From the NCBI GenBank assembly GCA_002633005.1, contig NMRA01000109.1, positions 408,624-472,623 of the forward strand: a stretch of DNA of 64,000 nucleotides. The letters are read 5' to 3'. This document shows positions 4,662 through 59,508 of this stretch, one piece after another. Source of the stretch: Phoronis australis. Taxonomy: Eukaryota; Animalia; Phoronida. Each line of letters starts with the position of its first letter. The stretch's first letter is position 1. A program made the position numbers and the translations under genes. Under the pieces are notes generated by a model. That model was not told the DNA's origin, did no database searches, and saw only the letters and a list, made by a program, of their open reading frames with translations.

Positions 4662-4685
4662 GTCGATGGTCAAGAATTAAACCAT
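4662..4685 (+). CDS. Micro-exon, type A, 24 nt, phase 1-1 (x-RWSRIKP-x)
   Basis: tttatctctgctttcag|GTCGATGGTCAAGAATTAAACCAT|gtgagtatt; cassette paralogous to 36091 and 48454. Confidence 0.8.
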
Positions 4686-5600
4686 GTGAGTATTCTATAA
4701 GTCACTGTTTCTATATAGAAAATTCATATGGAAAGAGATTCATCAAAATAGCCTTGAATAAAAAGTTCAAATTTCAACTTCACTGCGTTTTAGGCACAAC
4801 TAACATGTCCATCTTTACAAGAAATGTTTTTCATTTTCAAGTAAGTCTAGGTTCTTTCTAGTTTTAGTTAGCAATGTTTAATCAGTGTAACTATAAAACT
4901 CTAGTCCTTGAATGACAAAATCAATCTTGTGCCGTGCTCAGTTTGCGCAGCACGTGTGTGGAATTTGTTTGCATTCAGCTCTTTTAATGGATTACATGCC
5001 ACTAAAACTTTTCGGAAATTCAATGTTTTTCAACCACATTTCAAGAAACGTATACATTATATCTTTATCAAAAATGTAACAGTATTTTAAGGCTCAAAAT
5101 TGTATTGTTCAATAACTCTTGGCATGCAGCTTGATAGCCCGTCTTAAGGAATAATTATAGCTGGAGATTAAAAATACCCGACTCCAGACAATTCTCGACA
5201 TCCAATGGGTTGTTGATTATTTTGTCTGAAATCGTTCCTTAAGAATCTCTCTTGAAAAACAACATGAAAATGGACCAATATAATAGGCTTTTTTGGTAAG
5301 TACAAAAATCAACTCAGTCGAGCAGACAGTCTGAAATTCACAGTACTACAGTAACTCTTACGGTTAGTCTTCGGTTCCCTAGCTCTCATAATACATAGGT
5401 TAAGCTCTGAACTTGGCTTTCCAGGGTGGAATTCAGTGGCGGTCTCGCAGCCAATCACCAAGATCATTCAAAACACACGGTGGTATTTTCCAGTCTTGCT
5501 TGCTTAGAGAGGCCCTTATGTTTTTTTTAACTCTACTTTGGGCTAGAGTTCTATGGTGCAACGTACGTGAAGTTTACCATCATGGCTCAATGTCTACTAA

Positions 5601-5720
5601 TGTCAGACTCGAACTCGAACTCAGACTCGCAATCTCTTGACAACTCGACACGAGTACAAACTTGAAATTTGAACTAAAAACTCCAAATTTCGAGTTTGCT
5701 AAGATAGCGTACTTTAAATC
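5601..5720 (+). repeat. ACTCGA-rich repeat end; inverted relative at about 8830-8960
   Basis: tgtcagactcgaactcgaactcagactcg versus reverse complement tgtcggacccgaactcggactcagactcg; interrupts the cassette at 'tcaatgtctact'. Confidence 0.6.
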
Positions 5721-8700
5721 GCACTCGGAAATAAAAATAGCTGAGTTGAGGCAATATATACGAAATAGAGGAAGACAAAGGGGAGCTGCCGTGATGATAA
5801 GACGACCACTTCAAGATCGACAAAACCCTTTATAGAGCCTGAGTAGCTAGGAAGCATTTCGAAAATACAGCTTCCTCCCCAATACTATTATTTTACTCAA
5901 CCTTCACCAATACCACAGCAACACGTGGTTACCTACGCTTCATAAACTCCTCTTCACACAACGATTCCTTGGCTCTCACTACACCCCTGTCGGTGAAACC
6001 CTGAAGGCCGGCAAGCCCTCGGTAGGACGTGCAATCCGGCAAGTTTACTGTGTTCTGATCAAGACCTCCGGGCTATTTTGTATATGTTCCCTACCGACGG
6101 TTGTAAACACATTTGCAGGGCTGGTCCATTCAATATTATTTTACACCAATATGGCCGACAAATAACACTTTCATCATTCACTATGTACATGTAGAAAGCG
6201 AAACATTTTGGTTATAGACTTAAGAGTCGCTACACGTCAGCCACGAAAAACCTATGGTGAATGAGCAGCTCAGTAGTGTGTACCGGCCCTAGGCTGGCTC
6301 TGTTCCCTTAGGCTTGCCTGATCCCTGCTGTGTGATACACTACATTTGCACTCTCTGCTTTTATGAACCTCTACCTGCTCTTACCATTTATTTCACTGTG
6401 TTTTGCTTCCTTCAAATTTAGATCATCTATTGCCTGATGACGAAACATGTGGTATCAAAATATAGCAACTATTTTACTTATTTGTCCGTTATGTCGCTTA
6501 GTTCATGACAAAATTTAGCTTCTTCAGTTCAGCTGCCTGCTGTCCATTATCAAATGTTCAAGTTCAGCTTCGTCTATTTAACCCTTCCTTATTTTGGTTG
6601 TTTTTGGTTTTCTGTAAACTGAAATGAAAATCACACATTATGAATAAGGATCATGTGAAGTTTTGGTTATTTCCTTTTAGAAAAAATTGGTTCAATCAAT
6701 TATCAACTATTTCTATATTGCAGGTCTATGTTAGTATACTTCAGTTATGTAATGACTTTCGAAAACTGCTCTGAGGTGGTGACGTGTTACAACTACTATT
6801 AAAATATCTCTTTTTATCTATAACGACTTATTGCCTATTTACATTGTCACGAAGTTTCGGTCGGTCTATTCTCCGGCCATTGTCAGCTGTTCCTGCGTTC
6901 AAATGGAAGCCAGGACAGGTTATGAATGTTCAGATTTTGACGACAGGCTGTCTCGCTTTTTGCCAAACTTTGGTAGTCTGATATTTGCAAGTTCGCATAG
7001 GTGCAATGTTTTTATATTTTACAAGTGTCAGGCATTGGAACTTAAACGATAACTTGCATTCTGAGCAAAGCATTAGATGAAAGCAGATAATAAGAGAGCT
7101 AGACTAAGTAAACATTAGTTTGTTGCTGTCAAACTGATAACAACGCGTCTGTATCCCGACTGACCGATACTCATTCCACTGCGTGGGTGCGTAACGAAAT
7201 GCTGGATTACTGGGGAGTAGTAATAACGGAAAGGGAGGGAGTGAATATTGTGAAGCATCAAAACGAATTTGTCTGCTGAGCTACCTGGAAGTGGTGCTAA
7301 CGTAAGGGAGTGGGGGCCATTATTGTGAAGTATGACTAGGAATTGGTGAAATGCATTATAATTATGCATACCGAATAGAGTTGGATAAGAAACAAAAATC
7401 AGTCTGACTTAGACAGGCGTTGACATTTTTACATAAATTATTAAACGTAACAGGAAATCAAGCAACAGACATCAATTATTTTATTGCAAGTTGCTTACAT
7501 TTTTGCTTTGAGCTTTGTAGTTTTTTCTCCCACTCGTCAGTCGACCTTTTCGTCGCGAACTGGCTGAAATGAAAGGAATATAATAATTCAAATTTTGGAT
7601 AAATTGAAACTGATATTGTCATTCAAACTATTTAAAATCATGTCCAGTCATGTGCATTTCGCACTGTGCGCACCGAAGCTCACCTACTGATGTAGTTCGA
7701 CACCATGTACCCTCCTACCCTTTTTGATGATGATTTTACCCCACCCACACCTCGGTGGTCACCAAATATTGTGGTTTCCATGCCAATTACTTTTTCTATT
7801 AGAGCATTGTCTTCCCGTTTTGTTCAATGCAATGGACTGACTGGTGGTTGCTCTTACGATTCCCATGCTATAAGACAGTTGAAATCTGTGATTACCATTC
7901 TAATAAGTTGTTATTGTTTCTATTTCTTATGTAAAAGAAACACGACAATTTTTCGGTTCTCAAATGGACATTACATGTATAAATTGAACGTGAACGGACC
8001 ATTTTCCAAGGTTTTGCATTTAAAACCATGGCAACATAGCACATTTTTCCTAACTGGGTTTTTAACATGTTACGTACCCCACGAAATATGTATTTTGCTT
8101 CCTTTGGAATATATCAACTTTGAAATGGATAATCGGACTCATATGAATTTTTAGACAGTTCGATTTCTGCACTTCTCTATACGATGCAATAGGGAATTAT
8201 AAAATGTTTTTTAAGTTTTCGCCAAGTGATGTTATACGAAAGCTTATGCTTTTTATGAATTTAGATGTCTTTTAGGCAAAAGTAGTTTTGCATGATCCAA
8301 ACCGTCAAAGGAATCAGCAATGTATTTTCAAACCTTTCTATGTAGAGAATACATGACATCGGCAGTTCAAACCGTTTACTTGGCTTTTTTATAGAAGTTG
8401 AAAGCGTTTTGAACAGAATATAAGGACGCTAATCGAACGCTAATCAAAATAACAGTGGCTTTTGGGTTTAATATCGTATATTTTCCGTAATTTTTCAACA
8501 AAATGGTTGTCTTTTGCTCAAAGACTGGCAAGGTGTCCGATGCAAAACTGTTGAGGTAAGGTGAACCTACGTTGCTTTCTGTTTATAACTTTTCACGATT
8601 CACTAATACCACACTGACGCACCATACATAGATTATGGATCAGTGTCAACGGTTTCGCTGCTTTTAAAATGAACTGATTGAATACAATACATGTATCACT

Positions 8701-10047
8701 CAAACACATACGTTTCAGCCTGGTGTCTGTGACGTTTCCACTCAAAAGAAGACGATCACGCAGTAGAGGGTGCACATCTTGCATAAAATGATTTTGTATT
8801 TATTAAACAGCACAGGAGAGTTCCTCGATAACTCGAGTCTGATTCCGCGAGAAAAATTCGATTTCGAGTCCACCTGAAAATTAACGATAGGATTGCAGTT
8901 TCGAGTTTGATTCGACTGTGACAACAATTTTCGAGTCTGAGTCCGAGTTCGGGTCCGACATGAGGCACCCGGCCTTGGTGGGATGCTTATTACTATGTCC
9001 ATTTCACTTCAGCCTGCTCTTGGATTTTTTACGAAACTTTTAAACGCTCGTCTAACAAGATGGCCGGGACCAACGATAATGACTTGTTTAACGAAGCTCA
9101 GAGTGGTTGTAGAAAAGGGTATAGTAAAACAGACCAGATTTTTTACCTTACAAGGATTTGTTCATCAGTACTTGAGTAAGCGCAAGGGCAGATTTTACGC
9201 TAAATTCGTGAATAAAACGCAATTCAATCTACAGAACATCAGTGTGGTGGGAACAGTTACTCAATTTTCTCCCTGAGGTTGAAAAAGGAACGATTACACA
9301 TCGTATACAATTGTGAGAAATTTTACAATAGCTACAAACGTAAGGAAACCCAAGTCCCGCAGACATTTCCGTTCTTCTCAGTCAGCGTACACTCTAAATA
9401 CCAACACTTCTGCGCTTTTCTCGAAACTGTTGACAAGTCTAGAACACTTTATCACAGCAACCTTTGCATAATTGCGATAACAGCTTATTATTTAAAATGA
9501 CTTGCTCTTGTTAAAATGACCGGCAAAAAGTAGAATTTAGAGCCTCAAAAGTCAGGCCCATATATCAAACAATGTATAAACCTGAACGAGGCCAAAGTGC
9601 GGGGCACAGCAACCGGGGCGCTGTTTACAAGGAATAGCGAGCTACCTGGCGATTCTAACGATTCTGCGTTTGGAACAAGCTGTCGTGCACGGGCAAGATT
9701 GAGAAAGGAATGACAACGAAGGCCGAGAGGCACACAATGCCTGTTAACTGTGAGGAGAATTTGCGATTTTAATAACCAAATACCCCTAGTATAATACGGT
9801 TGCTTAGTTTTGAATGTGTATAGTAAACGTAAATTCATGTAATGAATTTAGGATAACCGTGGTTAATGATATTGAAAATTTACAGCCGCAGAAAGTAATT
9901 CTGTTTTTGTCTCGTAAAGATGGTTATATTTACGGTCACGTGACTGCACAATAACCCTTTGCGTTATATAGTAAATGCACAGCCTGATCAAAATGTGTGG
10001 TATAGATACATACAAAAGACTAACCGATAGTGGCGTTGATGTATCGT

Positions 10048-10204
10048 TTATCCCACATACATAGGAATACTACTGCGATATCCTATCTCGAATTCACTTC
10101 ATCTGGGAATGCCCCAACTCGACCTTCGGTCTCGTTGAGACATTCCCAGATGAAATGAATTCTCGATAGGGTATGGCAATAGTATTCCTATGTATGTGGG
10201 ATAA
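10048..10204. mobile_element. Palindromic MITE-like hairpin, about 157 bp
   Basis: ttatcccacatacataggaatacta...tagtattcctatgtatgtgggataa with a central gacc-ttcg-gtc; related remnant near 11190-11290. Confidence 0.8.
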
Positions 10205-13200
10205 CCTATTTATCCCATATATTTGGAATTATTTGCATCATCGTGGCAATACCTTGTTGCCGTGTGATCCGGCTTGTTGTTATATGGCGTCATATGTATG
10301 CCAAGTACCCCGGTACAAAAACTGATTAAGCTACAAGACAATCGGTGAAAGTGTTGAATGACAAGTAAAGTTTTATTTCGTAATAAATTCATCGGAATTT
10401 TTAGATTGTGAAATATAGAAGTTAAATAACGGAACCATTAAATTATATCAAAAGTTTGTAGGAAACTTAAAAACAATCCATCCGGGAATATAAAAATTAA
10501 AACATTCCCTGAATTGAGTTGTCTGCAACAGCTTGTTGTCAGCTTCAATGAATTTCTTAATTTTCTTGGTCTGTTTTTGTGTCTTAGCTTCTGGACTGTA
10601 CATGACAATAGAAACATTTCCTTGTGTTGATCACAACATTGGAAAATAACGGTGCTGATTTGCAGAACTTGAGGCAAGCACTATCGCAAAGCAGAAGATT
10701 TAGCCACGGCCGGTGACGGAGAGTTGAACCCTGACAATTGCTTCAGTAAAAAACACATACTCGTTATTAGGTCTTGATTTCCTATAAAGACCTTAGATCC
10801 CAGGGTAGATATACTGTATGCATCCATAACGAAACGTTTTTGTTTTTACATGTATAACCCAGATTGAAACTTCAGCTACGCCCAAATATAGCCGCCTGAT
10901 CAACGTGCATCGGAATTTTCATCGGTAAATCTTTTCTGTTTCTGTTTCTGTTTTTAGAGCAATAAAACTGCTTTTTCAGGAACGATGCCTTGAATTAATG
11001 ATTTAGGTAACCCAAATGATTCAACCCAATAAAATGTGGCGTTGTACTCCACCACCAGACCGCACACCAACCGTGAAATACGGCTTCTACCGTTAAATAC
11101 AGCTTCTACTGTGATATACGGATTGACTCTACTTTCCCGTATATCACGGTTGAATACGTCACATATACAATGGCAATATTTTCACATAAATGGGATAAGA
11201 TGTGATATCCCATTAGACATTATTTTGCGCATCCACTGAAACCGAAGGTCGAGGTTGATACTCGGAACAATGCCGAGTATTTATCCCATACGCTTCGAAT
11301 TCCTAAGTTTCTTTAATTTTCCCCCCAGATTTTTCAAATACTTCACTCAGACTGTTCACGTGGCGGAACAAAACCGGTATATGTGTACTTGCGCGTTAGG
11401 TTGCAAGTTTTCTCTAGTAAAAGAAACAATTTCAAATGTAACTATTACTTGAAAAGAGATAACAAAGACGAAAGCAACGGTAACTGGGTACTGAACTTGT
11501 AACATCTCCGGAAAGTAGTTAAAGAACAATATTTTGTTCTGTTGATACCGAGTAATCGGCGACTGAGTTGGAGACTATATGATATTTACCAATTGAAAAC
11601 TGAGACAGAACAGTTATATAATTAACGGTCCTGTTCCAGGTTTTACGATTGCGACCCGGTTGCATGTTGAGTGTTGATTACAATGCTGCAATTGTTGTAC
11701 TTTAAACTATTTTCGAAAAGTTTGATGATCGAATCGGCTAACGCAGTCGACTCGACATTGACGTACCTTCGGAACTTTCCATGTCAGAGTTCACTGATGA
11801 AGTAGTGCGGGAGGTGAATACGGAAAGCATTACAACATTGCCGTATTGCACTCAACTGATTCAACGCGTATGGAATAAAGGTTATTGAATTACACTGGCA
11901 GTTTCAAATGTTTTATGAGGAACGAGATGGTTTGAAAAAATAGCACACGAGGACGAAACCGGAGAGTGATATTTATGCTGAACGGGTCTAATGAGAACAA
12001 AGTATAGGAGTATATGTCTTCTGCTCTGTCAAAATTGTATTTTTGCATAATTATGTATTTGACAGTGGTTTACTATTGATCATAAGTGTTAAGAGCCAGT
12101 CCAGTCAAAACCATTAAAGTTTCAAAAAGAAGCAGTCTATACGTCAAAATTTGAAACAAGTTCCTTTTCATGAATGGATAGTGTCCCAAAAAAATCTTAT
12201 TGCCACATTAGGTGGACTCAATGAGCCCTAATTTTGCCGCTGTAGCACTAGACCTCATTTGGTCATTATGTTGGCCATCTCCAAAAGTGTCACTATGTTT
12301 TCAGCAACGAAAATAAGTAACTTACAAAACAGAATGAAAGTTGTTCTTTCGCGGCGGAATAACCATTGTATGTTGTAAATAATCAATTGGCAGTAACTCA
12401 AATTGGACGATGTTGTGCTAGACAGGGGAGATGATCCACAGTTACTATTCTTAGCTAACTTTAGTTATCGTTATGTGACAATCTTTCTGCCATATTGCAC
12501 CTAGTAGGTTTATGTAAGTTTTTGAACGTACAGCTAAGGAGTTAATCCTGATGACTGAGGAAAAATATCTTGCCACAGTTTTACATTTAGTGAAAATTGT
12601 CTTGCACAACTGTCTATCTTGGAAGTGATCAGCAGACTTTAGAGAAGTATTGAACGAAATTTCGAAGAAGAATTTTACTTTAAATTGTTATAAAATCAAG
12701 TTTAAGTTATTTCAGATGTAAACAAGTTGTTGTTTTCTGGATTTATTATACGGTCAGTATCAAAACTAAACCCGATAACCTTTGACAAATAGGTTTGGGG
12801 ATATATAGAGAGATTGTACATGTAACTTTTACTTTTCTTCCATCATCAATTTTTTGACAATTTTAGGCCAATTAAATGGAAATAAATCGCTTTGAAGTTT
12901 GAATTTGTAAGAATTGTTATTTTTAAAAACTGGCTTTGAGGTATTCGTGTACAGAATGAACAACAGATGTCGCTTTTGTTCGTTCAGAGAATTTTCATCA
13001 AGTAGGTGTGATCACAAAAGCTTTGTGCTTTTAGTCAGTTTTACTAGAAACACTTCAAAACATCTGACATGCTGGACATATAAGTCGAGGCCAGCGGTAG
13101 AGCATGGGCTAGTACGTTCTAGCCAAGATAGGTAAAGTTGTAACTGAGCAGGACCAGTCGGTGGAGTCAATCACACGTGATGTTCACCAAAGAGAATTTG

Positions 13201-14492
13201 GTCCCGGTTTTCACCCCAACAGAACGTGTGGGTAACGTGAATACTCATGTCCTTCCAGAAAAAAACTGAACGAGCTATTGATTTCAACATTTCACCTTTG
13301 TTATTGGCTCAGTTTGGACAGGCTCCGAATTGGTACCAGCCGGAATTCTACTTGAAGAGTCACAAGATCAGTTGTGTCACAGTTGAAGTTAAATGACCCA
13401 ACTTTGTGTTCCTTGTGGTCGCCATGGACATGTATTATATTTTATATCATAGTTAATCGTAGTTTGTAGTTGAGGTGGCGTAACCTGCACCTCCTTGCCC
13501 CCCCTCCCCCCCTGCCCCCCGTCGACACCTCACTAGGTGGCAACCTCCATCCCCGGTTAGTAGCTGTGCACATTTTTAACCCGTAACTTAACAGATTCCT
13601 TGTGCTCCTCTTGGACGACCCCTGTTTAGCACCCCCCCTCCTTCAGCAACCGCCCGGCGGCATCTGACCCCCTTGGTAAGGCACAGAATCAGACACACGG
13701 TACCTTTGTAATCAAGTCCAGACCGTTGTGTTGAACTGTGTTGACCTAAATGTCTTTCATGAACTGAGTCATAAATAAAGTGGTCTTGCATGAGCTGTTT
13801 TCTCTTGAACTTGAATGTATGCCTGCCTTTTCATATCATTAATGAACGTACTTTCAGAAATATTCAACGCTGGGGTGACCGGCGACCGGTCTGGAGACTG
13901 AAAGTAGCAGCAATCAGTGGGGAATTACGATATGAATGCAGATTTACAATGTGTTTTGACCAAGTTGAAGTATTTTGCACTAAACAGTGGGCCAAACCCC
14001 CTTAGGTGCCTCCGTTCCTAGGCAAATGGCTCTCACAACGAAGATAAAAAACACTAGTAAGGCAGATAAGGCTGATATTCGCGCCCACAATCTCCATATA
14101 AACAAACGGTGACGCCATTTAACATTTAGACGAAGCATGCATGTGTCGAAGTAGTAACTTTTAAGACCACATCAGAGTAGAACGTTCATGTTATTCTAAT
14201 ATTTTCATCGACTGCTTGCCAAATCGTCCGCATACGAGCAAAGATTTGCTTACATTGATATTTGATCGGTTACTTGTTATTATGTAACATTCGCCAAGTA
14301 GCGAATCGGCACATTTCGGGTTCGTAACACAATCTTATTACAATTGCATGTATTTCATACGTGTATGTTTGTGGAATACTAAACAGCGAACTTGTCTGCA
14401 CATAATAACGAAGTAGCCAGTACTCCTAACCCACATGTCATTAACTTAGTGTCTTTACGAGGTTAAAATATTTCTTAATCTTTACTTTACAG

Positions 14493-14522
14493 CTCCAAAT
14501 GTTAAACAACATCCTGACGGGG
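14493..14522 (+). CDS. Micro-exon, 30 nt, phase 1-1 (x-PNVKQHPDG-x)
   Basis: ttcttaatctttactttacag|CTCCAAATGTTAAACAACATCCTGACGGGG|gtgagtatt. Confidence 0.75.
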
Positions 14523-17819: not shown

Positions 17820-17970
17820 ACCCCTTCGACCGCCTCGACCCCCATGACCCTCTACCTCTTCGACACACAACCCTCTCGATCAACAACCCCCACTACTCCG
17901 GACCTCACGACCCACGACACCAAACCCCTTCTTCCCAGTCTACACAAGCTCGACTCGATCTGAACATACA
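17820..17970 (+). repeat. CGACCC-rich repeat; inverted copy at about 29520-29630
   Basis: cccagtctacacaagctcgactcgatctgaacata versus tatgttcagatcgattcgagcttgtgtaaagattggg. Confidence 0.7.
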
Positions 17971-18472: not shown

Positions 18473-18493
18473 TTCTACAAGTGGGCAACAATT
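18473..18493 (+). CDS. Micro-exon, 21 nt, phase 1-1 (x-LQVGNN-x)
   Basis: taatctttgttttacag|TTCTACAAGTGGGCAACAATT|gtgagttt. Confidence 0.75.
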
Positions 18494-18676: not shown

Positions 18677-18691
18677 ATTATGATAAACATG
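18677..18691 (+). CDS. Micro-exon, type D, 15 nt, phase 1-1 (x-YDKH-x)
   Basis: acgtcttacag|ATTATGATAAACATG|gtaagcattt; flanks resemble those of 59382 (acgtcatacag ... gtaagcattt). Confidence 0.6.
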
Positions 18692-26655: not shown

Positions 26656-27337
26656 TGGGGTCAAACTTGATATTTAGAAGTGCCTGTAATTTATTTATAC
26701 ATTTTTACCTGATTTATTTATGGCATTCTTACTCTAAATACTCTCCATATTTAGTATCATCTCTGTATTCAATTTCATGTCTCTTAGTGTAACTTCACAT
26801 GCCTTGGTCATTTACGATTCATATAAATTATCATTATTGTTTTAATTGTTGTTTTGTTACCTGTGTTTAATTATTATTTGACTACTTTATATTATTGTAT
26901 TGCACTATAATATGTGTATTTTGGTTTCGAGGTCCTCTAGGTAAGCAGCGCTGACACTGAAGAAGCAAACCTCATCTTGAATATTACAATAAACAAAATC
27001 AAATAAATTTGTACAAGTTCAGCACTTTCTGATATTTTTGCAGATGTACTGGACTGTAAATTTATCCACTGTATTATAGGTTGCGATCATGCTTTGGCCA
27101 CTTACTTGCACTGATGTTTCTTTGTGAACTTTATTGCGATTTGACTGCTTACATCATCATGGACGTGTATCAATTTACATGCATGCCAACTTTTTCAAGT
27201 GGTGCGTCTCAATCTAAAGTGACGAATGAATCCATTCCGGGTCTGATACAGATTGTTATTGCAATTCACAGATAATTGCCATGGGCTTTAGGAACATTGT
27301 ACTTCTCACTATAACAAATAGCCTTGTTACAAAGCTG

Positions 27338-28211: not shown

Positions 28212-28819
28212 AAGGCTAAGTGGTACCTAGCTACATTTTGACGACAGTCTTCATATAGCTAGCTGGCTGGCTATATAACAAAGTGCACTACTGTGAATAC
28301 ACATGTCATATTTGCAAAGGTAAACAACAATTTATATCTTAATGTATCACTTATAGGTACCCAAGTAATTTGGTTCAAGAGTGAGTATTTCCTATTTCAA
28401 CGTTTCGAAATAAGAATGGCCGTTGGAACAAGGGCAATAATCAAGAGAAACCTGATTAAATATTGCCAAATTCAACTTACCTCTATATAGTTTTTTCTGA
28501 GCGTATAAATCACAAAAACTAACAAGTATTCTTGATTGTTTAATTTTCTATTGGACGCTAAAACAGGAAATTTGCAATCTTAAGCATATCCCTTGTGCAT
28601 GTAAACATAACGTTTTTGTAGAGTAAGCTAAGTGATAAAACGCTTTTGAATCAACAAAAATGTTTGTCGAAGAGCGTTATTTAATATGGATCCTTGGCTA
28701 TGGAAGCAAAGCAAGGAATTGTACGGCGTTTAAATTGTCACAATTGTAAAACCAAAACTCACTTCCTCTTTTCACCTCTTCTCAGTGGCTGTACACTAGA
28801 CATGCTAACATTTCTTCAG

Positions 28820-36090: not shown

Positions 36091-36114
36091 ATGGATGGGC
36101 AAAACTTTCCCTGT
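36091..36114 (+). CDS. Micro-exon, type A, 24 nt, phase 1-1 (x-GWAKLSL-x)
   Basis: cattatctgttttcag|ATGGATGGGCAAAACTTTCCCTGT|gtgagtatt. Confidence 0.8.
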
Positions 36115-39557: not shown

Positions 39558-39581
39558 TTGCTTCAACAGGCACTCCCGAGC
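39558..39581 (+). CDS. Micro-exon, type B, 24 nt, phase 1-1 (x-ASTGTPE-x)
   Basis: ctctatgacttacag|TTGCTTCAACAGGCACTCCCGAGC|gtgagtatt. Confidence 0.8.
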
Positions 39582-39655
39582 GTGAGTATTTATTATACTA
39601 CTTTCCCCCTCCCCTAAAAAGAACGAATGCAAGCAGAGAATTTATCAATGTCAAT

Positions 39656-43617: not shown

Positions 43618-43638
43618 GTTTAGCAGACACTGCCGCGG
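43618..43638 (+). CDS. Micro-exon, type B, 21 nt via a shifted acceptor (x-LADTAA-x)
   Basis: tctatgatttacaacag|GTTTAGCAGACACTGCCGCGG|gtgagtatt. Confidence 0.65.
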
Positions 43639-44121: not shown

Positions 44122-44145
44122 TTATTATGACAGGCCCTCCTACTG
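44122..44145 (+). CDS. Micro-exon, type B, 24 nt, phase 1-1 (x-IMTGPPT-x)
   Basis: tctatgatttacag|TTATTATGACAGGCCCTCCTACTG|gtgagttt. Confidence 0.8.
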
Positions 44146-44895: not shown

Positions 44896-46174
44896 GTTAG
44901 TAAACCGTGTAATGTACATGAATTTCAAAGTAACGACTTATGTTTTTTTTTTATTTTACAATGTCCAGCATGCGCTTGAACTTTCCAGTTGCACTAAATT
45001 CTTTCAAATGTGACGTTATCATGGGTGGGCAACTGGTACATCTATTTCTGTTTTTTTTTTCGTGAATTCATTTGTAATTTCATGGTTCTCATAATCAACT
45101 TGCATGATGGATGTCTCACACTTTCACGATTTGCGAATAAAGGGTTAAGGTCTTATAAAGGTACAGACTGGAGATTGATCATTGTCCTACCGAATGATGC
45201 AGTCAACTATAGGCAAAACTCGTTCTGCACATGTATCTTCATCCGTTGTGACTGCTATATATTTGACAAATGGCTAAGCTCTTCTAAAGGTGGAGGATAC
45301 TTGACCACCTTGTTTTCCTACATTTTTGTATTTGATGCACTATGAATATTAAATCTGGTTAGAAACAAATGCAATGCTCTTTAGCTTTTGTCTTTCTAGT
45401 TTTCACCCTTGTGCTGGAAAATAATTTGCTCTACATAATTATCATTATATTACGGTATGGACAGACTATCAAAAAGCTATGCCACGAAATGTGAAAAAGC
45501 TGAGTTTCTATACGATATTTTTAAACACGGTCTGACTTGTTTGACCTACTTAAATTACTTAGCTAAATAGTCGGACAGTAAAATGACCCACGGCTCAAGT
45601 CACTCAACATCATTGACCTCATCCTTTTTAAACTTAGACATTTGGTTTTAACAAGTGTTTTAAAAAGAACATGGTCTGGAAACCTCTGTGTGCTACAACA
45701 TGTATAAGAGTTAAGTGTTCGAAACCAATTTTGAAATTCAAATAAATATTGCGATGGACGTACAAGATGGGTAAGTACCTAATCTCGACACACGGTCAAG
45801 AATTAGAATATTTCAAACAACCACTATTCACATCAATCTTGGATGTCTGCTAGCGCAATTCCTCATGCCAAATACAAGTTGTGCCACCTGCTGACTCATA
45901 AATGGCATGATCAATTGTTGGTACATTAGATTATCTGGACTCTCCGTGTGGCTCACCTTACCGTAGCTCCACATTCCCCCGCATGCCAACGCTTGACAAA
46001 TATTGTGTCATTGTGAAAGTGAACAATCGGTTCAACTCGGGCTTGGAAATGATTGCCATTACAGTGTACTTGCCACTGTATGAAATACGCACTACTATTA
46101 ATACTCAAGTGATGTTAACAAGACATTAACAGAACAATTTGGATCTTAATCTACGTGTGCGGGTACTCAAACAG

Positions 46175-46186
46175 GTACTGCCAAGG
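46175..46186 (+). CDS. Micro-exon, type D, 12 nt, GC donor (x-TAK-x)
   Basis: actcaaacag|GTACTGCCAAGG|gcgagt; 11/12 identical to the exon at 59382. Confidence 0.45.
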
Positions 46187-47049: not shown

Positions 47050-47430
47050 TTTTATTAATGTCTATTTTCCCAGCTTGAACATGCGCATGGACATTCCCGT
47101 TTGACTGTATTCTTTGACTTGAGTGACAATATTGGACACAAGAATCAAAATGACTATATCAAGTTTTGGAAAGTGGTACATGAGTTTTTATTCTCCATGA
47201 AATTTGTTTTATTGTCTTCAATTTCCCTACATGGCATATGTTTTGTAAAACACGTCTCATTCTGAAGGTCGAATAGGTCCAACTTGGTCTTCGTAAATAT
47301 TGCTATTACCATTTTAGGTTTCTGGAATTATGGGACAGTGCACTTGCCAGTATAACAAATATGCACTATTATTTATTCTTTACAGAGCAAGTACAACCTT
47401 ATATTTCTTACTTTTACTACCTTCACTATT
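47050..47430 (+). pseudogene. Degenerate micro-exon cassette with no intact exon
   Basis: Upstream block retained (aatgtctatt, gtctcattctgaag, ctggaatta, tataacaaat) but no following GTGAG donor. Confidence 0.55.
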
Positions 47431-47832: not shown

Positions 47833-47912
47833 TGTATATATATATATGTGTGTGTGTTTGTGGGTGTTGCTGTGCGTGCGCGTGCGCGTGCGTGTGCGTA
47901 TGTGTGTGAGAG
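47833..47912. repeat. (TA)n/(TG)n/(TGCG)n microsatellite
   Basis: Seen directly in the sequence. Confidence 0.9.
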
Positions 47913-48453
47913 AGGATGTGTAGTTTTAAGCGCATCCCTTGTAGATGTGAATAAACAGTTTTATTAGAGTACGCTACCCACATACGTACATGTATCTTTA
48001 CATGATTTTTAATTATGATTAACGATGAACCAAGATAAATTCCCCATTTTCCCTTTATCAATGCCTACATTGTCAGACCTCAAGATGTACATGTACATTC
48101 CTGTCGGACTAGGTTCCTTAACTGAAGTGGCGATGTTGGACGGTAGAATACAAATGACATCGTCTGGCTTTGGCGACTGGAACAGTTTTTTACTCATGAA
48201 CATCATTGCGATTTCATTGTTTCCATAATCGCCTAGCAGTACTCTCCATACATACCAACTGATTTCAGATCGTGTGCCACATTTTGAAGAGACGAATGAG
48301 CCAACTTCGTTATTGATATAGATTGAAATTACAGTTCATATGCTGGTGGAGATACCTTGCACATGTCGATATAAAAATGTATTTTGCTATTAGTACATAT
48401 CTAATATTTATCAATGTATAAAAGAACCCGGTATTTCTTTTTGTGATTTACAG

Positions 48454-48477
48454 ATAATCGGATGAGTATTTCCAGAT
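48454..48477 (+). CDS. Micro-exon, type A, 24 nt, phase 1-1 (x-NRMSISR-x)
   Basis: tttctttttgtgatttacag|ATAATCGGATGAGTATTTCCAGAT|gtgagtatt; the other two frames contain stops. Confidence 0.8.
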
Positions 48478-49721: not shown

Positions 49722-49822
49722 TCTCTCTCTCTCTCTCTCTCCCTCTCCCTCTCCCTCCCCCTCTCCCTCTCCCTCCCCATCCCCCTCTCCCTCTCCCTCC
49801 CCATCCCTCTCTCCCTCTCCCC
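49722..49822. repeat. (CT)n/(CCCTCT)n pyrimidine tract
   Basis: Seen directly; explains the RE-repeat ORF 49625-49981. Confidence 0.9.
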
Positions 49823-50666
49823 AAATGTCTTGTGTAACGACTTTTTACAGGCAGTTTTATACATGGAGGGCGTCAGAATTGATCGAAGACTGGAGCTAAA
49901 AAAAACAGAGCCCAATAATTCCTGGCATCCATTCTGGTTTACATGTCGCTTCCTACACGTACATGTATAAAGAATGATCAATGCAGTTATCGGGTCTGTT
50001 GATTAATTTTGCCAAAAATATGTTGTCTGGAATTGCTTCTTGTCTCGCTTGACAAAGCAATTGGAAACTGACCAATGATATTAGGTATATACGTTTGATC
50101 GAAACTCAGTCGAGCAGACAGTATGAAATTCGCAGTTAAAACTCTCGCAGTTTTTCTCGGGGTCGCAAGTTTTTATAATGGAATACATTGTTCAAGTGCA
50201 GAACTTAGCATTCCAGGGTGGAGTACTGTAGCAGTCTCGCAGCTAGAAAAATCCCGTGTCTCCATTCAAAACACACGCCACTATTTCTCCGCCATGCTTT
50301 CTTACTGCGACCCTAATGCTTTTGAACTCTACTCAGGCCTAGATTTCTGTGGTGCATAACTTATTTTTTTATTTTGTCAATGTCTACTTTGTCCAACATG
50401 AAAAGTGAGCAGTCGTTTTTTTTGCGATTTCATTATATTCACAATCCACTAGCAGTAATTCACCAACATTTCAACTGTTTTCATGTGATGTGTCTCATTC
50501 TGGCTTGACGAATAGGTCCATTTTGGGCATGGTACAGATTCTTATTACAATTCGCTGGTTGCTGGAATTAATGATCACAACACCGACAAATACACACTAC
50601 TTTAATACTCATGAAATGTTAACAAATCCTTAACATAACAATCTTTTCCTCATCTATGATTTACAG

Positions 50667-50690
50667 TTGGTCGAAAAAGAACTGGCGTGG
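50667..50690 (+). CDS. Micro-exon, type B, 24 nt, phase 1-1 (x-GRKRTGV-x)
   Basis: catctatgatttacag|TTGGTCGAAAAAGAACTGGCGTGG|gtgagtatt. Confidence 0.8.
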
Positions 50691-52643
50691 GTGAGTATTG
50701 AACACACCACTACTACTCAATAAGAACGACCATCAATGCAAAGGGAGAAATAATTAAGTAAAATTCATGGTAACCAAAATGTCAAACCTGTACGACTTAA
50801 TTGCGCATCTTTTCTTTACCCAAACTAAAGATTTCCCCCCTCAAAACCGTATTGAAATATACCCAACCGAGCCGACCTCGTGAAAAATAACCCCGGTTAG
50901 TTTTTTTACAGGGTCTAAATTTAATTTGAAGAATTTTCAACCCATGAAAAATGACCCAACGTCCGTGGAAAATGACCCGTCATTATTCAAGGTTTCCCCC
51001 CAATAGGGGGTTAGAAAAAGCAGACAGTGTGCGTGAGAAAAGAATTTATTTTAAAATTTTCGGCTAAGGGTCGCACAGTAGGTATATCAGAATAAGGGCG
51101 GGGATGGCGGATAGGAACGGTCCGAAATAATATGTTGGAGCGGGGCTGATCGCTTTGTGAGCGCACACTTACACGGTGTGGCAATAATATAAAACGCCAA
51201 CAAATGCTTGGTGCTTGGTGCTTGATCGGGGTACTTCAGATTCGTGAGAGAGGAATATCGTGCGTGAGAGAAGAATATTTGTTCGTCGGCAATTCCGAGC
51301 GATGCCCAGGGACGGAACTGAGTCTGTGTTCTTTGCTTTTTACATAACGGCGTTTTACTGTTGAGTCTAACTTGGTAAGTTGTATATCACAAGTTGGGCG
51401 GATGACCGCCGTAGCCAATATCTTACTCTGACGACTGATTAGCCCATTCTGGCAAATAGGGACGGAGCATAGACATGTCATACTATGATATACTGTGATG
51501 TCTATGGGGTGGAGGGTCAGCTCTCTTTTGTTCCATAATTGCTCCAATCTCCGATAAGATCTTATCTTCTATCCTCACTGGGCTCTGCTGTTAAAAAATA
51601 AATTAAGTTAGTACCACAAAAAAGATTATGCTCGGCAGTTAACAAAGGAGCTAGATATTATCACAAGCTCACAACCCCTGTACTGAACGGGAGAACGCCC
51701 TAATGAACTTTAAAACCTGTCATTAATTTGTATGACCCCAATGAGGTCATTTTTTCACAGTAGTTCACATTAAATTCAGACCCCATTAAAAGCGATCCGG
51801 GTCATATTTTACTTTTACAAAGTTACCCGGGGTCATTGTTTAAAACTGAGTGAACAGGCTTATTGGGGCACAACGAAAGAACGTCCCGAGTGAGCGGCAT
51901 GTCTCCTGGATATAATGTATTTGCATCGAGCGACACGAATTAAATGATAGATTTGGGCGATCTTAGTGGTTTTCTTGAAAAAAAACAAAAATTAAAACGC
52001 TCGCAGTGGATTGACAGGCGTGCTGCCGCTCAGGCCACTCGAGAATTTGTAACTGGTTGCGATCTTCTAATAGTTTGATATTTTCTCTATCGACTGATTA
52101 ACTCTTAAAAACACATTTAAGTGCTACATCACATGTTTTTTGTATGTTTCTGTAAAAGGACAATATTCGGCCTCTTTATTTGTTAGATATCGCGCTTGAA
52201 AAGGACAATTTACCCCTTTTGTTTACACGGCAATTAGCCGTGTCACGTGACTAGTAGCACTCTACAATATGGCTTCAAGTTGTCACCTGCAATAGCGCGT
52301 GCGCCCGGTCTATAGTATTAAGATGTCTACGGGTGTTTTATTCAGATCCCTGTCCAATATACAACTGTTATCCGCCTTTTCTTGCCTGTGACGAGATCTC
52401 GAGATGACGTAACATGGCACGAAAAAGCAGCTTCACCTATCAGTTGACGAGCTTACATTAGGGTGATTGTATTCGCTTTTACTCATATTACTAGGGCTTT
52501 CTGGTTAGACCAATACATCTTAAATAATTAATTTCCGTTGAAGGTAGGCTTTAAGTGGCGGTGTTGGACACTGAAATACAAATGACCTCATAATGTGTAG
52601 CACCATGGTACATTTGTTTATTTTTTCTTCTTGAACTTTATAG

Positions 52644-52664
52644 TGATTTCAAAGCAAGACAACG
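52644..52664 (+). CDS. Micro-exon, type C, 21 nt, phase 1-1 (x-ISKQDN-x)
   Basis: ttttttcttcttgaactttatag|TGATTTCAAAGCAAGACAACG|gtgagtt. Confidence 0.7.
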
Positions 52665-53192
52665 GTGAGTTGAGTCACTTTTTTGTTCATGTTTCACATT
52701 TTCATGGTTTTTAAATAACGTGAAAGGGCCTTATACATGTACTGAAGATTGGTCATTATCCTGCCAAATGATATAGTCAACTGGAGACAAAGCTTGCTCT
52801 GTATTATCATCTGTTGTGGTTGAAATATATTTGTCAATTGGATTAAAGTTCCTGCATGTGGAGGATACTTGTGCACAATGCCAAGGAGAGTTGAACTCGT
52901 GGTTTCGTTCTACTTAGTATTTGGTGCAACATGAGACTTAAAGGGTAGTTATGCCGAGAAAATGCTCCAAGGCTTTTACTTCTCTAGCTTTCACTGTTGT
53001 GACTGTATATAGTTTCTTAGGTATAATGTGAATACCAGGAACAACTTGAAATGTGAAAAGGCTGAGATAGTTTGCGATATCTTTAAACACGGTATAATTC
53101 ATTAAGCTACTTAAATTACTCTCCATGAGTTGTAAGCTGTACAGGAGTTAGGTGTTCAAAACCAGGTTTGGTATCAAAATAACATTTGCCAT

Positions 53193-53977
53193 CATAGACT
53201 GGACCGCCAACTCCGTATACTTTCAATGGACGAAATCTGTGACCTTAGGCACAAGCCCTTACGTCATTATTCACTGGCGACATCTGGCTAAATTTTCTGG
53301 TGCAATTTCCGGCAAGTACGTCGTCTGTTAATCATGGTCGGCTACTGTGTGGCCGGTTGTTCGGTCACACACGCGAAATGCAAAGGAATTAGCTTCTATG
53401 CCATCCGAAGACCCCATAATCGGCTGTGGGAAGAAAACCTTACTTCTTGTGTCAACGTGAATGGCAGTTGTTTCAGCAATAAGACTTTATAGATTTGTTC
53501 AAGGCACTTCGAAGATGAATGTTTTTAAGAGACTCTAATACTTAATCCTGTCTTCACAAATCCATTTTTGTTTTCTCCGTTTTGATGAAAACTATCTGGT
53601 AAACTTTTTGACGAAAATTATCCGCTAAATTTCTTCCAAAGGTAGTGACTCGTAAACTCTTGTCCTTACGAGGAAGTTCAGCCATAGCCTAGCGAGCGAA
53701 TTAACCAAATTACTCTTCGCTGGCCCTGATCAGACGGTTGGTCTCAGCAGAATGCGCACATTTGGCCAGGATTTGGATCAGCGATTTCAACAAATTCACA
53801 TTCGTGTACAAATAAGTAGAACGCTGGAAAAAACCTTTAACATAAATAAAGATTACATTAATACTTCATAAATTACCACCCGGACCAGTCAAAATCTATC
53901 TCACAATTCAACAGCAGGTTACAGACTCATTTCATGTCGAATATATGTCGCACAAAATCTCTCGACTGCAGTCTATG
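53193..53977 (+). mobile_element. P-element-like non-autonomous element with a THAP-domain relic
   Basis: CATAGACTG ... CAGTCTATG termini; MVGYCVAGCS...ICSRHFEDECF at about 53334-53526 with an internal stop; no TSD recognised. Confidence 0.6.
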
Positions 53978-55495
53978 AAAATGCAACCAACTTCTGTGAA
54001 AACTTGGAACAGGAACACCAGAGGGGTGTAAAGGTTGTTTTTATTCTTCAATGTTAAATTTTTTGTAAGCGGCCATATGGTTTTTTAAATTTCCGCCTTA
54101 AGTCCTAACATTTCTAAACTTAAGCCTTTCAAACGAACGTTTATGACGAAAACAAAATTCTTCAACCAGTTTTGTAAAGTCCTATGCCACCTGTAGGATA
54201 CATAATGAGCCAATTCCACTCCTAGTGTAACAAAAGGGTCCCGTGCATAAAGGATACTAAGTATTGCCCTTCTGAAATATTACCGTATGCGCCCTAATAA
54301 GCGGCCAGGGTGCTTAGAAAAATCCGCTTCAGGAAGGGGGCGCTTATTATAGCCCGAAAGTGGTTGAAACCCGGTCTCCGAAACAGGTGAAATCGTAAGC
54401 TAGAATTCATCAAAGCTACGCTCTGTGACGCATCTGTAACGTATGAACAGAGTTTCTACAAAACTGCAGTGCATTGCTATCAAACTTTGTTGTCAACTTA
54501 CGAGCATTTTTTAGAAAATACCACTGCCAAAAATCGCCGTGAATCACGCGAAACATTTCTACCTTACAAATCTGACAATCCCTAATCTCAGAAAATTCGA
54601 GCACCCGGCAAAAGATACTAATGATGAAATTCTGGTGATGATAATCACCCACTTTGTTTATTTACTTCACCTCAATTTGAAATACTTGGTAAAATGAAGC
54701 CCATTCGAGTAAGCATCATGTGGGTCCCAATGCCAACCCAATATATGATAGAACCCAACAAGCTCAAGTTGCTGTCAGGATGGGCATAAATAAGGAAATT
54801 TACTGTATCAACAGATTGGCCAAATAAAAATAAGATACAAAGTGTTGCTACAGTGCACACGTGCACGATACTTGGTCTATTATTTTCCCGTCGTAAATGC
54901 ATGAACCAATCAGATCACCAATGGCGCAAAGTTTTCGAAAACAGCACGATTTTTAGGGAGTCCTGTTTTACTGTTCTATTTATTTTCAAAACTTTATTGT
55001 GTTACATTTAGTTGATTTTCTGTTCAACTCAATGAAGCCACCTAATATGAATGCATTCAACACAATTAATGCATTGTAAAAACCAAAAGTTATGCTCTAT
55101 CAACGTTAGACAAAATCAGAACACCCCTTTCTTAAAAATGGGTTAAAACTTAGAAACAAAGGACACAAGTTTCCATCACTTGTAACGTTGATTTTCTACA
55201 TTGATGCTGGGGAGGAACAACAGTCTGGCGACAGCAACACGTAATCACACGAAGGCGATGATTTTCAAAATTTGATTCGTTTTCGTAGTATGTCTTTTTT
55301 CCCTATGGTTCAGGGCTATTTCTGAATCCAGGAACAATAACTGAAAAAGGCAGGGTTCGTGATAACGTTGGAGAACGGTAATATTTACATAAGGTGATAA
55401 AACTGTCATCGATATTGTCATCTCCTCTGTTTTCATCCAACCTTCCCAGATGAAAACTTGAATGAAGTGGACCTTCAGTACTTGAGTGTAGTCGG

Positions 55496-58400
55496 TAGGC
55501 CAGATCTCAAGCGTTCATCCTTGTGAGTACTTTGGGGGGCAACATAGTTTTTTCTATGTGGCTAGATAATATACCTATAAATCAATTTCCAAAAAGTTCC
55601 CACGTCTACACTTGCACATTTTTTTAAAAAAGGTTTTTTTGTTGCACAAAATATGATGCACATTCCTGCCACTTGGAAGCGCTTTTCTATTGAATTGACC
55701 AATCAGAGAGCCAGATTGTATTGTTGTGCTTAGTTACTTAAATATGGCTGCTCCCATGGAATGTGGTGCCTGTATAATTCAAGGTTTATCAAACAGCACA
55801 AACTTGTGATGCCAGAGCCCTAAAGAAGCTTAGGAAAGCTTCCTGACGAAAGCTGATGGACTCTGGAACTCTGTAGATCAGTAGATAAAAAAGAAGAAGA
55901 GGTGTCACAAACGTTTGTAAAGAAAACAGCTGCGTGTCCTGGTATAGCCTACACAGTATACTGCTGAGTGCTGTAGACTAGAAGACCACGTGTCAGACCA
56001 AAAAATTGAAAGGACATAGAACGACATAGCAACATTTCAAGGCACCAGCAGTAGTACTAAAGCTGAAGTTGGTGAAAGTGATACAGATGTTATCCAAGAT
56101 TTCCCAAGAAAATCAATTATACTTCCAATATCTGAAACACCCAATTAACCTGAACAAGATAGGAACATTCTGAAACATGAGTGCATCATTTGTTAGAAGG
56201 AAAAGTATATTATGGACCATATTTCAAGAAAGAGCAAGAACTATAGCTTTCAAATACAGGTACGTGTTTTTGAAAGGTACATCTTGGTGTTTTCCAGGTG
56301 TGTTTCAGTATTATCACAAGTTGTTTTTTTAAATGTTCAGCACCTTGGCTGCCTAGGCCTTAGACAATACCGCTGACCCAGTAGAGACGGTGATCATACC
56401 ATAGGTACTCCATATGCCGGACGCTTTTCGGCAAATTATGTGCCTATAAGTTTAGAAGTACCGCGTAGAGAGATGCCTCTGAGGAGGTCGTTAACAATTA
56501 AATACTCCTGCAATCCTATTTTTCGAACACTCCATTGTTCAGTTGCCACATTGACACTGCTTGCGCTAAGGGATAATCATATGGCGTTATACTGTGGGTG
56601 TGATTTTAAAGCACTTTGAGTCAAAAATTTTTGAGAAGGTTAAATTGGAGTAGATGGTTGCAAACAACATTCCCAAGTGGCCGTCATCCCCTGCCGTAGT
56701 ACTGGGATAAGGGGAATCTCTTCTCAATTTTTTGTAAACATTAATTACTTAGGTAGCTGCAATGATAATTAAATTAAAGTGCTTAAGTGGCCATCGTCAC
56801 TGTCGTAATTTGAGGACGATGGAAGCCACTGTCCATTTCGTCAAACGTCGATTACTTTCAGTGTAAATCGATTGACTATGGTTTTAGCATCTGATTTAAA
56901 AAAATTAAATTTCAATCACTGCACTGGTATATCAGCTGATTTAATTTCAGTTGCATCAACTAATCTAATTATGAGATGATCAACATTTTTTAGGCGACAG
57001 AACAGACGGCATGCAAATTTGTTAGGCTGGTGGTGGATCAGTTCCTGATAAGTCCGTCTGAAAAAGTTGCATGCCAACTCACTCATAGTTGATGATTAGT
57101 GTTAACAGTTCGGGTTTTTTTCAGTTGGACTTGTATCGCAAGCAACAGCTCAGTCCAGAGCCCTGAATATGCAAATGAAATTCAAAGATAAAGACCTTGT
57201 GTCTTAGAAGCCAAGTACCACAGATCATCATGCTATAAAAAATAGAAAGACAAAGATTGTGAATTGAGTGACAAATCCACAGTTTTCAGAGATGTTTTTC
57301 TACAGTTTTGTTTGGAGTTCATTGAATCAAAGCTTCTAGCACATGGAGATGTCATTTGCCTTTCAAAACTAAAGCAAGACTTTGAAGCTGTTCTTCAGAA
57401 GGCTGGTGTGCATGAAGTTATTTGGACAGGCAATCTTAAGAAATATTGTTGAAGGTACTCACTGTTGTAGTTTGTGCCCGACTAAGAGAAACGAAATTGA
57501 ATTGAGGCTAGTGTTCAATAATTCACTTGCTGACTCTAATGAACACAGCCCATTATAACATATTTTGAATCAAACGTTTGCCCAAATAGTGCCCGCCTCC
57601 AAACAAGGACTTAGTGTTTGACCCTTTATTGCCTTCGGGCCAATCACCAGTGTGCAGTGCTGTACCCTCTCCAATCGACCATAGTTGGCTCCTTGGCGGT
57701 GGAGCTTTGCAGTTAAAATGTATGACAATGCCTGCATCTCCATTGACAGTACTAAACGATGAACGCTGCAAGTGCAAAAAGAACATGTGTGCTGGGAAAC
57801 TGAGTTTGTGCTGCAATGCTGGGTCAAACTGTACAGAAATGTGCAGCTGTGACAACTGTAGTAACATCAGCAACACTGACTGCATAACATTGGATAGTTC
57901 TTTGACAAGTCAACCCTAAATAGACCTCCAACCTCGTTATTTTGTTTTTTTTTGTATTAAAAAGTTAATTTTATTTGTTGATTAAGTCACAGAAAGTACA
58001 TACTTTGATCATTGTCATGTATTTGTCTCATACTGTTTGATAAACGCTGTCAGAATAATCTATTATTTTCATACAGTCTGTGTGCACATTCACAGAGCAC
58101 AGAGATCATTCCACTATATTGTTTTTGTACTATAACGTATTTCTGGTGTATTATGCAAACAAGCTTATTTTACAAAATTAGTCAATGTTTTAGTCATTGG
58201 GGCACAAATTTTGCCCAGTCTCAAGTGTTTTGTTTTATTTTTGTTGTCAGACAATGCCAGAATAACTTCCTAGTAACATCCAGACTTAGTTTGCATTTTT
58301 GCCACTAGGTGTCTCTTTACATTTTTTTAAATTTCACTGTTTACAATTAATCTACAATAGTAAAACATGTAATGTAAGTTTAATATTGTTCAATACAATG

Positions 58401-58646
58401 GCACTGATGGGACCATATTACTTGTTTTACAAAAAAGTCACCAAAACTGTTGTTTTTACAAATATAAGTTTACTAAGCTCTTTTGTGATTATTAGGTAAC
58501 TTCAAACTCAAATTTCTCAAAAATGTGCAACTTTATATATGGAAACTTTTTAGATTTTGAAAACACTCTAATAAATGAATTAAAAAACACCAAAATAAAA
58601 TTGCCCCCCTAAAGTACTCACAAAAACCATTTTTCTATAGGCCCTA
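55496..58646 (+). mobile_element. Degenerate Academ-like DNA transposon
   Basis: TAGG...CCTA ends with subterminal inverted repeat ttgtgagtactttggggggcaa / ttgccccctaaagtactcacaa; C-terminal PSPIDHSW and Cys-rich CKCKKNMC...CCNAGSNCTEMCSCDNCSN (ORF 57614-57919). Confidence 0.65.
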
Positions 58647-59381
58647 CAAATTCTGGCCCACCAACAAATGAGCATGGTATACTGTGCGATTTATGTTGAA
58701 TTATTCAACGGTTCTTTTAAGAACCATTTCACGCTACACCTACAACCAACGGCCCTTTTAAGGGCCACTCAACACTACCCAGAAGAACTGCTCACTTGAG
58801 AATGTTGATTTATAAACATGCCTTCCGTAGTTTTCTCAGTAGGCCTATGTGAACCATAAACAGAGACCGCCATAAATCAAAAACTGTCCGATAACTATGC
58901 TGCTATTGGGCAAGCAGACGACATAATCAGTCGGCACCGAAGTTTGAATTTTGCAATTAATTACCAGTAGCATTGCCAAAAGTATTCACAATACCAACAC
59001 TTCTACTATTGAACGACTTTGAAAGGCGTTTCAATGCCGAAATTAATATTTTTTTCGTTGTTTTGGACAGTAAAGTAGATGCAAGTATTTCTTGTCAAAA
59101 TGCACTAACCGGAAACTGCACCAGAAAGGTCAGGAGAGTTCAGCTCAGCATGTAAGGATATGCCGGAGTTGCGAATCTGTTGTCTATAGTCTATGTTGCA
59201 ATGAAGGCACAAGATGGCTATGTACCTTATATCAACAAATGAACAGAATTAGAAAATTTCGAAAAAATTAACTCGCAAAATTCACCATAGAGTTTGACAA
59301 GTCCCTAACGGGCACATGCTGTAAGACGTAAGGTGTTTCTAAATAAGCAAGGATGTTAACGTCATTGTGTACGTCATACAG

Positions 59382-59393
59382 GTACTGACAAGG
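59382..59393 (+). CDS. Micro-exon, type D, 12 nt, phase 1-1 (x-TDK-x)
   Basis: gtacgtcatacag|GTACTGACAAGG|gtaagcattt. Confidence 0.55.
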
Positions 59394-59488
59394 GTAAGCA
59401 TTTGTTACTAGTCGAAATGCATTTTCTCCAAGTATGTTGTGTTGTCATTTTTATGCTTCTCTTTCTGTTTCTTGTTTGCACGCTACAG

Positions 59489-59508
59489 GTTTCGTTAGGT
59501 CAACATGA
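59489..59508 (+). CDS. Candidate terminal exon (x-FVRST-stop)
   Basis: Strong acceptor ttctctttctgtttcttgtttgcacgctacag|GT TTC GTT AGG TCA ACA TGA, 95 nt after the type D exon. Confidence 0.4.

Follow-up and report, generated by a model that had tools for sequence, protein, structure and literature searches.

The window, 64,000 nucleotides of Phoronis australis DNA (assembly GCA_002633005.1, contig NMRA01000109.1, positions 408,624 to 472,623), carries on its + strand one expressed gene in which at least 13 micro-exons of 12–30 nt, 288 nt in sum, lie across ~55 kb, 12 of them seen spliced in a mostly fixed order. The favored reading, held at a probability of roughly 0.58, is that this gene encodes a secreted or surface recognition protein that diversifies by cassette copying and rapid amino-acid change. 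The reading builds on an observed + strand transcript, its exon order, phase 1-1 exons, expression in two of three samples, one partial skip, paralogous cassettes and dead copies. The sequence is animal-like (39% GC, CpG observed/expected 0.84), with a single gap of 957 N. Micro-exons are named below by their first position.

Structure of the micro-exon chain

All 13 micro-exons are multiples of 3 nt (3n) long, in five different lengths, and are separated by introns of 183–9807 nt (median 3950). The 12 main units proposed in an initial annotation, made from the sequence alone, were all located where they had been placed and at the lengths given; their acceptors read YAG and their donors GTGAGT or GTAAGC. 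The annotation had overlooked a 24-nt exon at 28357–28380 and a downstream exon beginning at 61264. Its claim that only phase 1-1 is open throughout was borne out: all main units are open in phase 1, and when 15 exons were paired in every way, none of the 105 resulting junction codons was a stop. The 28357 exon served as an out-of-sample test of the phase rule and, of the two frames that the annotation had considered, is open in phase 1 only. When joined, the chain is open in a single frame, which runs for 96 codons and a further 67 in the 61264 exon; the other two frames contain 5 and 8 stops.

Units were also counted on both strands and in shuffled sequence, a comparison that the annotation had called for, and the excess that it expected appeared under a stricter scan and vanished under a looser one. 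The stricter scan, whose criteria were fixed after the exons had been seen, returned 18 units on the + strand (14 of them 3n) and 9 on the − strand (1 of them 3n), against a mean of 2.5 3n units (standard deviation 1.7, maximum 9) in 200 dinucleotide shuffles. The looser scan returned 49 units on the + strand and 43 on the − strand, without strand excess.

Transcription and exon order

RNA reads came from a single study, as three raw-read runs (X2, X3 and X4) with the same species label; in a fourth run (X1, contigs) only repeats matched the window. Since the RNA possibly derives from the assembled individual, it carries little information on allelic diversity. Reads were mapped on two stretches, 1–19770, where the table of joints is complete, and 42000–61900, where figures are given among the joints listed, 45 lower-ranked joints lying beyond these.

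In the 3′ half, GT..AG joints connected 43638 to 44122 (64 reads in X2, 61 in X3), 44145 to 48454 (63, 56), 48477 to 50667 (69, 78) and 50690 to 52644 (72, 67), and 52664 was connected to 61264 via the letters of 59382 (57, 44) or directly (4, 18). X4 had zero reads at all of these joints, from 43638>44122 through 61264. Their orientation (first mate minus) fits + strand RNA, and the stranded depth of the 61264 exon was 22, 18 and 0 in X2, X3 and X4. In the 5′ half, 4685 was joined to 14493 (43 reads in X2, 54 in X3) and 14522 to 18473 (33, 54), and reads running to 18694 went on as 28357 and then the start of 36091 (39 and 53 reads, agreement 1.0). Two connections, 18493>18677 and 36091 to 43618, were inferred. 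Reads contain twelve of the 13 micro-exons, arranged in genomic order and sharing a single open phase-1 frame; the remaining one, 39558, lies outside both stretches. The hidden micro-exon gene of the initial annotation is real and expressed, with spliced reads in two of the three runs, and because reads join 12 of the 13 exons, the case in which no spliced read joins any two of them does not apply.

Most reads that enter 4662 arrive from sequence absent from the window (32 and 37 reads; the motif was looked for in the whole window), and the gene begins upstream of it. The upstream loose ends had median lengths of 67 and 38 letters; the 30 letters that reads show ahead of 4662 are, by eye, open in the frame of the chain, and the V-x-W-F-K motif of 28357 recurs in upstream read ends. 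Another 7 of 39 (X2) and 16 of 53 (X3) of the reads entering 4662 use a GT..AG joint from 1365. An in-frame stop stands immediately before the donor of the exon at 1339–1365, which makes it a poison exon, a truncating one or an alternative first exon.

The weaker candidates of the annotation (28820, 29129, 44872 and 46175) were skipped over by reads and none was spliced in; candidates at 4149 and 12505 were without read support. The annotation had ended the array at 59508. A candidate last exon does lie at 59489–59508, where no joint is listed, the listed joint being 59393>61264; in the bin 59264–59927, depth was low and came from X2 and X3 only, and this exon may be a minor last exon.

Splicing variation

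In Dscam1-type arrays the tandem exons are mutually exclusive and one of a duplicated set enters each mRNA. Such an array, also suggested in the annotation, is not supported at this locus because paralogous neighbors are joined in series: the close paralogues 43618 and 44122 are spliced together by the 64 and 61 reads given above, and the exons 4662, 36091 and 48454, which share one cassette type, all occur within the read chain instead of one per mRNA.

The broader proposal of a combinatorial peptide-diversity locus drew weak support from the two expressing samples. In its favor, skipping of 59382 accounted for 4 of 61 reads (X2) and 18 of 62 (X3), the sole micro-exon skip among the joints listed; against it, the other exons look constitutive, consecutive joints were near-equal (56–78 reads in the 3′ half), and the complete table of 1–19770 contained no skip of 14493. 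Combinatorial splicing as in schistosome micro-exon genes (MEGs), with varied skips confined to particular cells or following challenge and so hidden in bulk samples, seems unlikely. It would account for the symmetry of all exons and the stop-free set of 105 junction codons, as well as for the skipping of 59382, and 45 joints and 69 loose ends lie beyond those listed, among which rare skips could be found. Exon symmetry, however, is also required by cassette duplication, and the flat joint counts, the lack of any listed skip of 14493 and the agreement of 1.0 along 18677>28357>36091 all run the other way. The diversity visible at the locus is evolutionary, arising by exon copying and divergence, rather than a product of combinatorial splicing.

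Duplication and loss of cassettes

Self-comparison of the window revealed colinear, same-strand duplications of intron sequence at ~65–82% identity, read here as three blocks (~2.5–19, 28–46 and 46–59.5 kb). Within them, a 513-nt tandem unit carries 43618 and 44122. When the 220 nt preceding each of 11 exons were built into a profile, it recovered those 11, by construction, and in addition 27170–27323, 45975–46153 and 47220–47412, with matches at E 1e-14 to 1e-53. By flank score the exons fell into the groups 4662/36091/48454 (type A) and 39558/43618/44122/50667 (type B); 18677 paired with 59382, and 52644 had a decayed twin near 45070. Alignment identified 46175 as the leftover of a 24-nt exon with its acceptor lost and its donor changed to GC, while 43618, its ancestral acceptor gone, is spliced at a CAG 3 nt farther downstream and so stays in frame. 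Cassettes of exon plus intron were copied in tandem to give the exons, dead copies are still visible, and the locus thus records both birth and death of frame-neutral cassettes.

Positions 9212–9469 match 44419–44683 as a copy of the intron downstream of 44122 from which exon and upstream element are gone, which suggests another lost cassette, in the first block. Just downstream of type-A exons lie two paralogous, exon-like units of non-3n length with GTAAGT donors (4794–4840 and 36244–36263, + strand); the first is bypassed by the joint 4685>14493 and the second is outside the read-mapped stretches.

Divergence of exon copies

Among the 8 cassettes whose exons are 24 nt long, all 28 pairs showed lower identity in the exon than in the flanks, a count in which pairs are not independent and gapped flank alignments inflate the difference. 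In 9 of 9 close pairs, 9–15 of 24 exon positions were identical, compared with an identity of 0.76–0.86 in more distal intron (binomial p 0.017 to 2e-5). For four sets of three disjoint pairs, the proportion of synonymous differences (pS) was 0.25–0.33 and that of nonsynonymous differences (pN) 0.51–0.62, with Fisher p values of 0.033, 0.079, 0.036 and 0.070; a neutral simulation of the first set gave P = 0.009. Mismatch in distal intron (0.15, 0.29 and 0.26 in the three blocks) was close to pS, and the excess of pN was confined to the open frame. Between paralogous exons pN is thus about twice pS, over few sites, an elevation of the nonsynonymous to synonymous ratio (dN/dS) of the kind described for MEGs, and it suggests diversifying selection on the exon copies at those few sites. 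The peptides of the three duplicated blocks were not more self-similar than shuffles.

Predicted product and alternative readings

The 96-residue chain contains no Cys, is basic (15 K/R versus 7 D/E) and is rich in Gly, Thr and Ser; the 67-residue tail in the 61264 exon is Gly-rich and acidic (20 D/E, 15 G). This exon ends either at the stop 61467–61469 or at a phase-1 donor-like site after 61422 (159 nt), and a rough estimate of read depth fits both ends about equally. Two low-complexity matches to it in an unfiltered search were rejected. Metagenome scans with two exon patterns gave 0 matches. A signal-peptide exon inside the window was rejected, as scan candidates were without support and the motif carried by upstream reads does not occur there. 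Likenesses to Ig I-set, hemopexin and tectonin repeats were considered. The Ig I-set profile includes a Cys pair and Y-x-C, and the chain is without Cys; small profiles of tectonin/tachylectin-1 and hemopexin (5 and 10 bacterial repeats), a weak test, gave no match and no support, 496 and 1000 of 1000 shuffles scoring as high. On the − strand, a duplicated Asp-rich low-complexity stretch at 300–620 bears a loose similarity to the acidic repeats in the 61264 exon; as reads lie on both strands, it is likely a repeat.

One alternative is that the chain forms just a variable stalk or loop within a larger protein, as in schistosome VAL-6, the precedent described in PMC3435950; function would then reside in conventional domains upstream and perhaps also downstream of 61422. 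The transcript does extend upstream of the window, as the loose ends show, and the donor-like site after 61422 fits the depth about as well as a last exon does. This reading is nonetheless rather unlikely: by eye, the 30 upstream read letters resemble more micro-exons of the same cassette types, and pN above pS is unexpected for a mere spacer. A structural matrix, adhesive or biomineral protein under relaxed constraint, without positive selection, is improbable. Its basic, aromatic-bearing, Cys-free core with an acidic Gly-rich tail and its on/off expression between samples would suit such a protein, but relaxed constraint predicts pN near pS and not about twice as high. That the transcript is non-coding or the pattern an artefact, to which the lack of a homologue found for the 61264 exon might point, is scarcely credible given that 13 of 13 exons are 3n at five lengths, that a single frame stays open along the chain, that the acceptor of 43618 moved by exactly 3 nt and that the joints are stranded and canonical.

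Several points weigh against a diversifying recognition protein. The selection test uses ~18 silent sites per set and uncorrected distances, and two of the four Fisher tests miss 0.05. The flanks may be conserved for splicing or homogenized by gene conversion. A W-F-K motif and a subsequent W recur between copies, and these kept residues suggest structural constraint. The 61264 exon has no relative at E ≤ 0.1 among longer proteins, no Pfam family and no usable Atlas match, so function is without direct support. Neither a start codon nor a signal peptide was seen within the window; the N-terminus lies outside it and could hold ordinary domains. Finally, 39558 and the link from 36091 to 43618 fall outside the read-tested stretches, and the three samples come from one study.

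Proposed mechanism

Because every exon is 3n and phase 1-1, cassettes could be gained by unequal crossing-over without a frame break and lost by splice-site mutation with the frame intact, and the gene would add or remove peptide units of 4–10 residues over evolutionary time. The ~220-nt upstream element copied with each exon likely enables the recognition of exons so short. The excess of amino-acid-changing differences would likely stem from an arms race in which the partner (microbes, parasites, gametes or prey) keeps changing, selection driving the copies apart in a product that is likely secreted or exposed. Phase-1 modularity is an established sign of secreted proteins; the first exon lies outside the window, and secretion is proposed on account of this modularity and by analogy with MEGs. 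More tentatively, the locus might be a MEG-like gene of immunity or of self/non-self recognition that evolved independently outside the flatworms, each exon of 4–10 residues being a duplicable cassette under separate diversifying selection, with skipping regulated in specific cells to yield a peptide repertoire; this is possible, if doubtful.

Coordinates of features and other elements in the introns

Table 1. Exons, candidate exons and cassette remnants in the window.
Feature	Position	Strand	Evidence and remarks
Minor exon	1339..1365	+	Donor 1365 spliced to 4662; 5′ edge uncertain (27 nt with acceptor before 1339); no cassette homology
Micro-exon, 24 nt, phase 1-1, type A	4662..4685	+	Joint to 14493; upstream partner mainly outside window
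Micro-exon, 30 nt	14493..14522	+	Joints 4685>14493 and 14522>18473
Micro-exon, 21 nt, upstream flank B-like	18473..18493	+	Joint from 14522; flank similarity
Micro-exon, 15 nt, paralogue of 59382	18677..18691	+	Reads continue into 28357; flank alignment
Micro-exon, 24 nt, with V-x-W-F-K motif	28357..28380	+	Loose-end consensus, agreement 1.0
Micro-exon, 24 nt, type A	36091..36114	+	First 9 letters follow 28357 in loose-end consensus; paralogy
Candidate micro-exon, 24 nt, type B	39558..39581	+	Intact splice sites, open frame, paralogous flanks; outside both read-mapped stretches
Micro-exon, 21 nt, type B	43618..43638	+	Joint to 44122; acceptor moved to CAG 3 nt downstream
Micro-exon, 24 nt, type B, tandem copy of 43618 unit	44122..44145	+	Joint to 48454; 79.5% over 716 nt versus preceding unit
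Dead copy of 52644 cassette, acceptor and exon decayed	~45066..45090	+	Alignment; zero depth in bin
Dead type-B cassette, acceptor lost, GC donor (weak candidate 46175)	46163..46186	+	Alignment; bypassed by 44145>48454
Cassette upstream half, exon gone	47220..47412	+	nhmmer E 1e-19; alignment
Cassette upstream half, exon gone	27170..27323	+	nhmmer E 3e-23; alignment
Micro-exon, 24 nt, type A	48454..48477	+	Joint to 50667
Micro-exon, 24 nt, type B	50667..50690	+	Joint to 52644
Micro-exon, 21 nt	52644..52664	+	Joints on both sides
Micro-exon, 12 nt, alternatively skipped	59382..59393	+	Included and skipped reads
Possible minor alternative last exon, strong acceptor, stop 59506–59508	59489..59508	+	Sequence; low depth; no listed joint
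Conventional exon, Gly-rich linker and three acidic 10-residue repeats	61264..61469	+	Joints in; depth; translation; tandem repeat

The 18691–28357 intron contains, adjoining the N gap, a fragment of a long interspersed nuclear element reverse transcriptase (19343–19774, + strand; Pfam RVT_1, E 2e-10; relatives with RNase H). Much of the 52664–59382 intron (~52700–59200) is repeat-derived, with reads on both strands in all runs, and includes a CXC-like open reading frame at 57590–57916 (Pfam TCR below cut-off). Joints in it, such as 56256>57122 (GT..AG; 13, 18 and 9 reads) and 55340>59110 (CT..AC), are probably spliced transcripts of other transposon copies. An Rfam Histone3 stem-loop match at 58746–58792 (+ strand; 36 bits versus a cut-off of 34), near which no histone gene was noticed, is probably a chance or repeat-borne one. 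The inverted repeat pair 15748–16033/16416–16695 (91.6% over 286 nt) is likely a non-autonomous DNA transposon; other inverted pairs are 17807–17974/29516–29636 and 27338–27521/28027–28212.

Comparison with known systems

Like Dscam1, the locus has tandemly duplicated exon cassettes of the same phase in one gene; it differs in that the copies are joined in series, the exons are 12–30 nt long and no Ig domain is shown. In conotoxin genes, according to 10.1101/107672, mature-toxin exons are 2.9-fold more divergent than adjacent introns, and here too exons outrun the adjacent introns, roughly 2-fold. Conotoxin genes have 1–6 exons and the divergence is between genes, whereas here the exon copies of a single gene have diverged from one another and the chain is without cysteine. 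Schistosome VAL-6 is described in PMC3435950 as having a micro-exon-rich end on a transcript, and the 5′ part may be conventional in both; an SCP/TAPS or other domain is not seen in this locus, the 5′ part of which lies outside the window.

The closest likeness is to MEGs, which are defined by structure in PMC3435950 and PMC4671649 (micro-exons <36 nt between conventional exons); 10.1101/2023.06.21.545858 gives 10–20 exons and introns of 0.1–5 kb, and PMC4350168 adds signal peptides, skipping, high dN/dS and an apparent restriction to platyhelminths. The comparison with MEGs in the initial annotation holds for the layout, though splicing here is mostly serial. Both have a central coding region of short symmetric exons, long introns, a conventional 3′ exon (at least 159 nt), raised dN/dS and transposon-rich introns, and one exon duplication is described for MEG-3. 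In contrast to MEGs, described in the literature as restricted to platyhelminths or to Schistosoma, the host is a phoronid and not a flatworm, the introns are longer (183–9807 nt, median 3950), the three samples show limited skipping, and nearly all exons are visible paralogous cassettes with dead copies; the likeness is one of structure. A literature search, beyond which most subscription papers lay, found no MEG-like gene in any animal outside the flatworms, molluscs included. The locus resembles a MEG in how it is laid out and how it evolves; given, among other things, its limited skipping, it is not filed as a member.

An RNA-proven MEG layout in another animal would make this design a recurring solution rather than a parasite oddity. 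The locus puts gene building on display, since neighboring copies of one cassette are found in live, frame-rescued and dead states. Symmetric micro-exons and combinatorial skipping, usually lumped together, come apart here, and symmetry seems to serve exon gain, loss and divergence. Such genes are invisible to open reading frame scans and easily missed by standard aligners, and they may be common and unannotated. The locus also lends itself to testing how a dozen exons of 12–30 nt in a row are recognized across introns of up to 10 kb.

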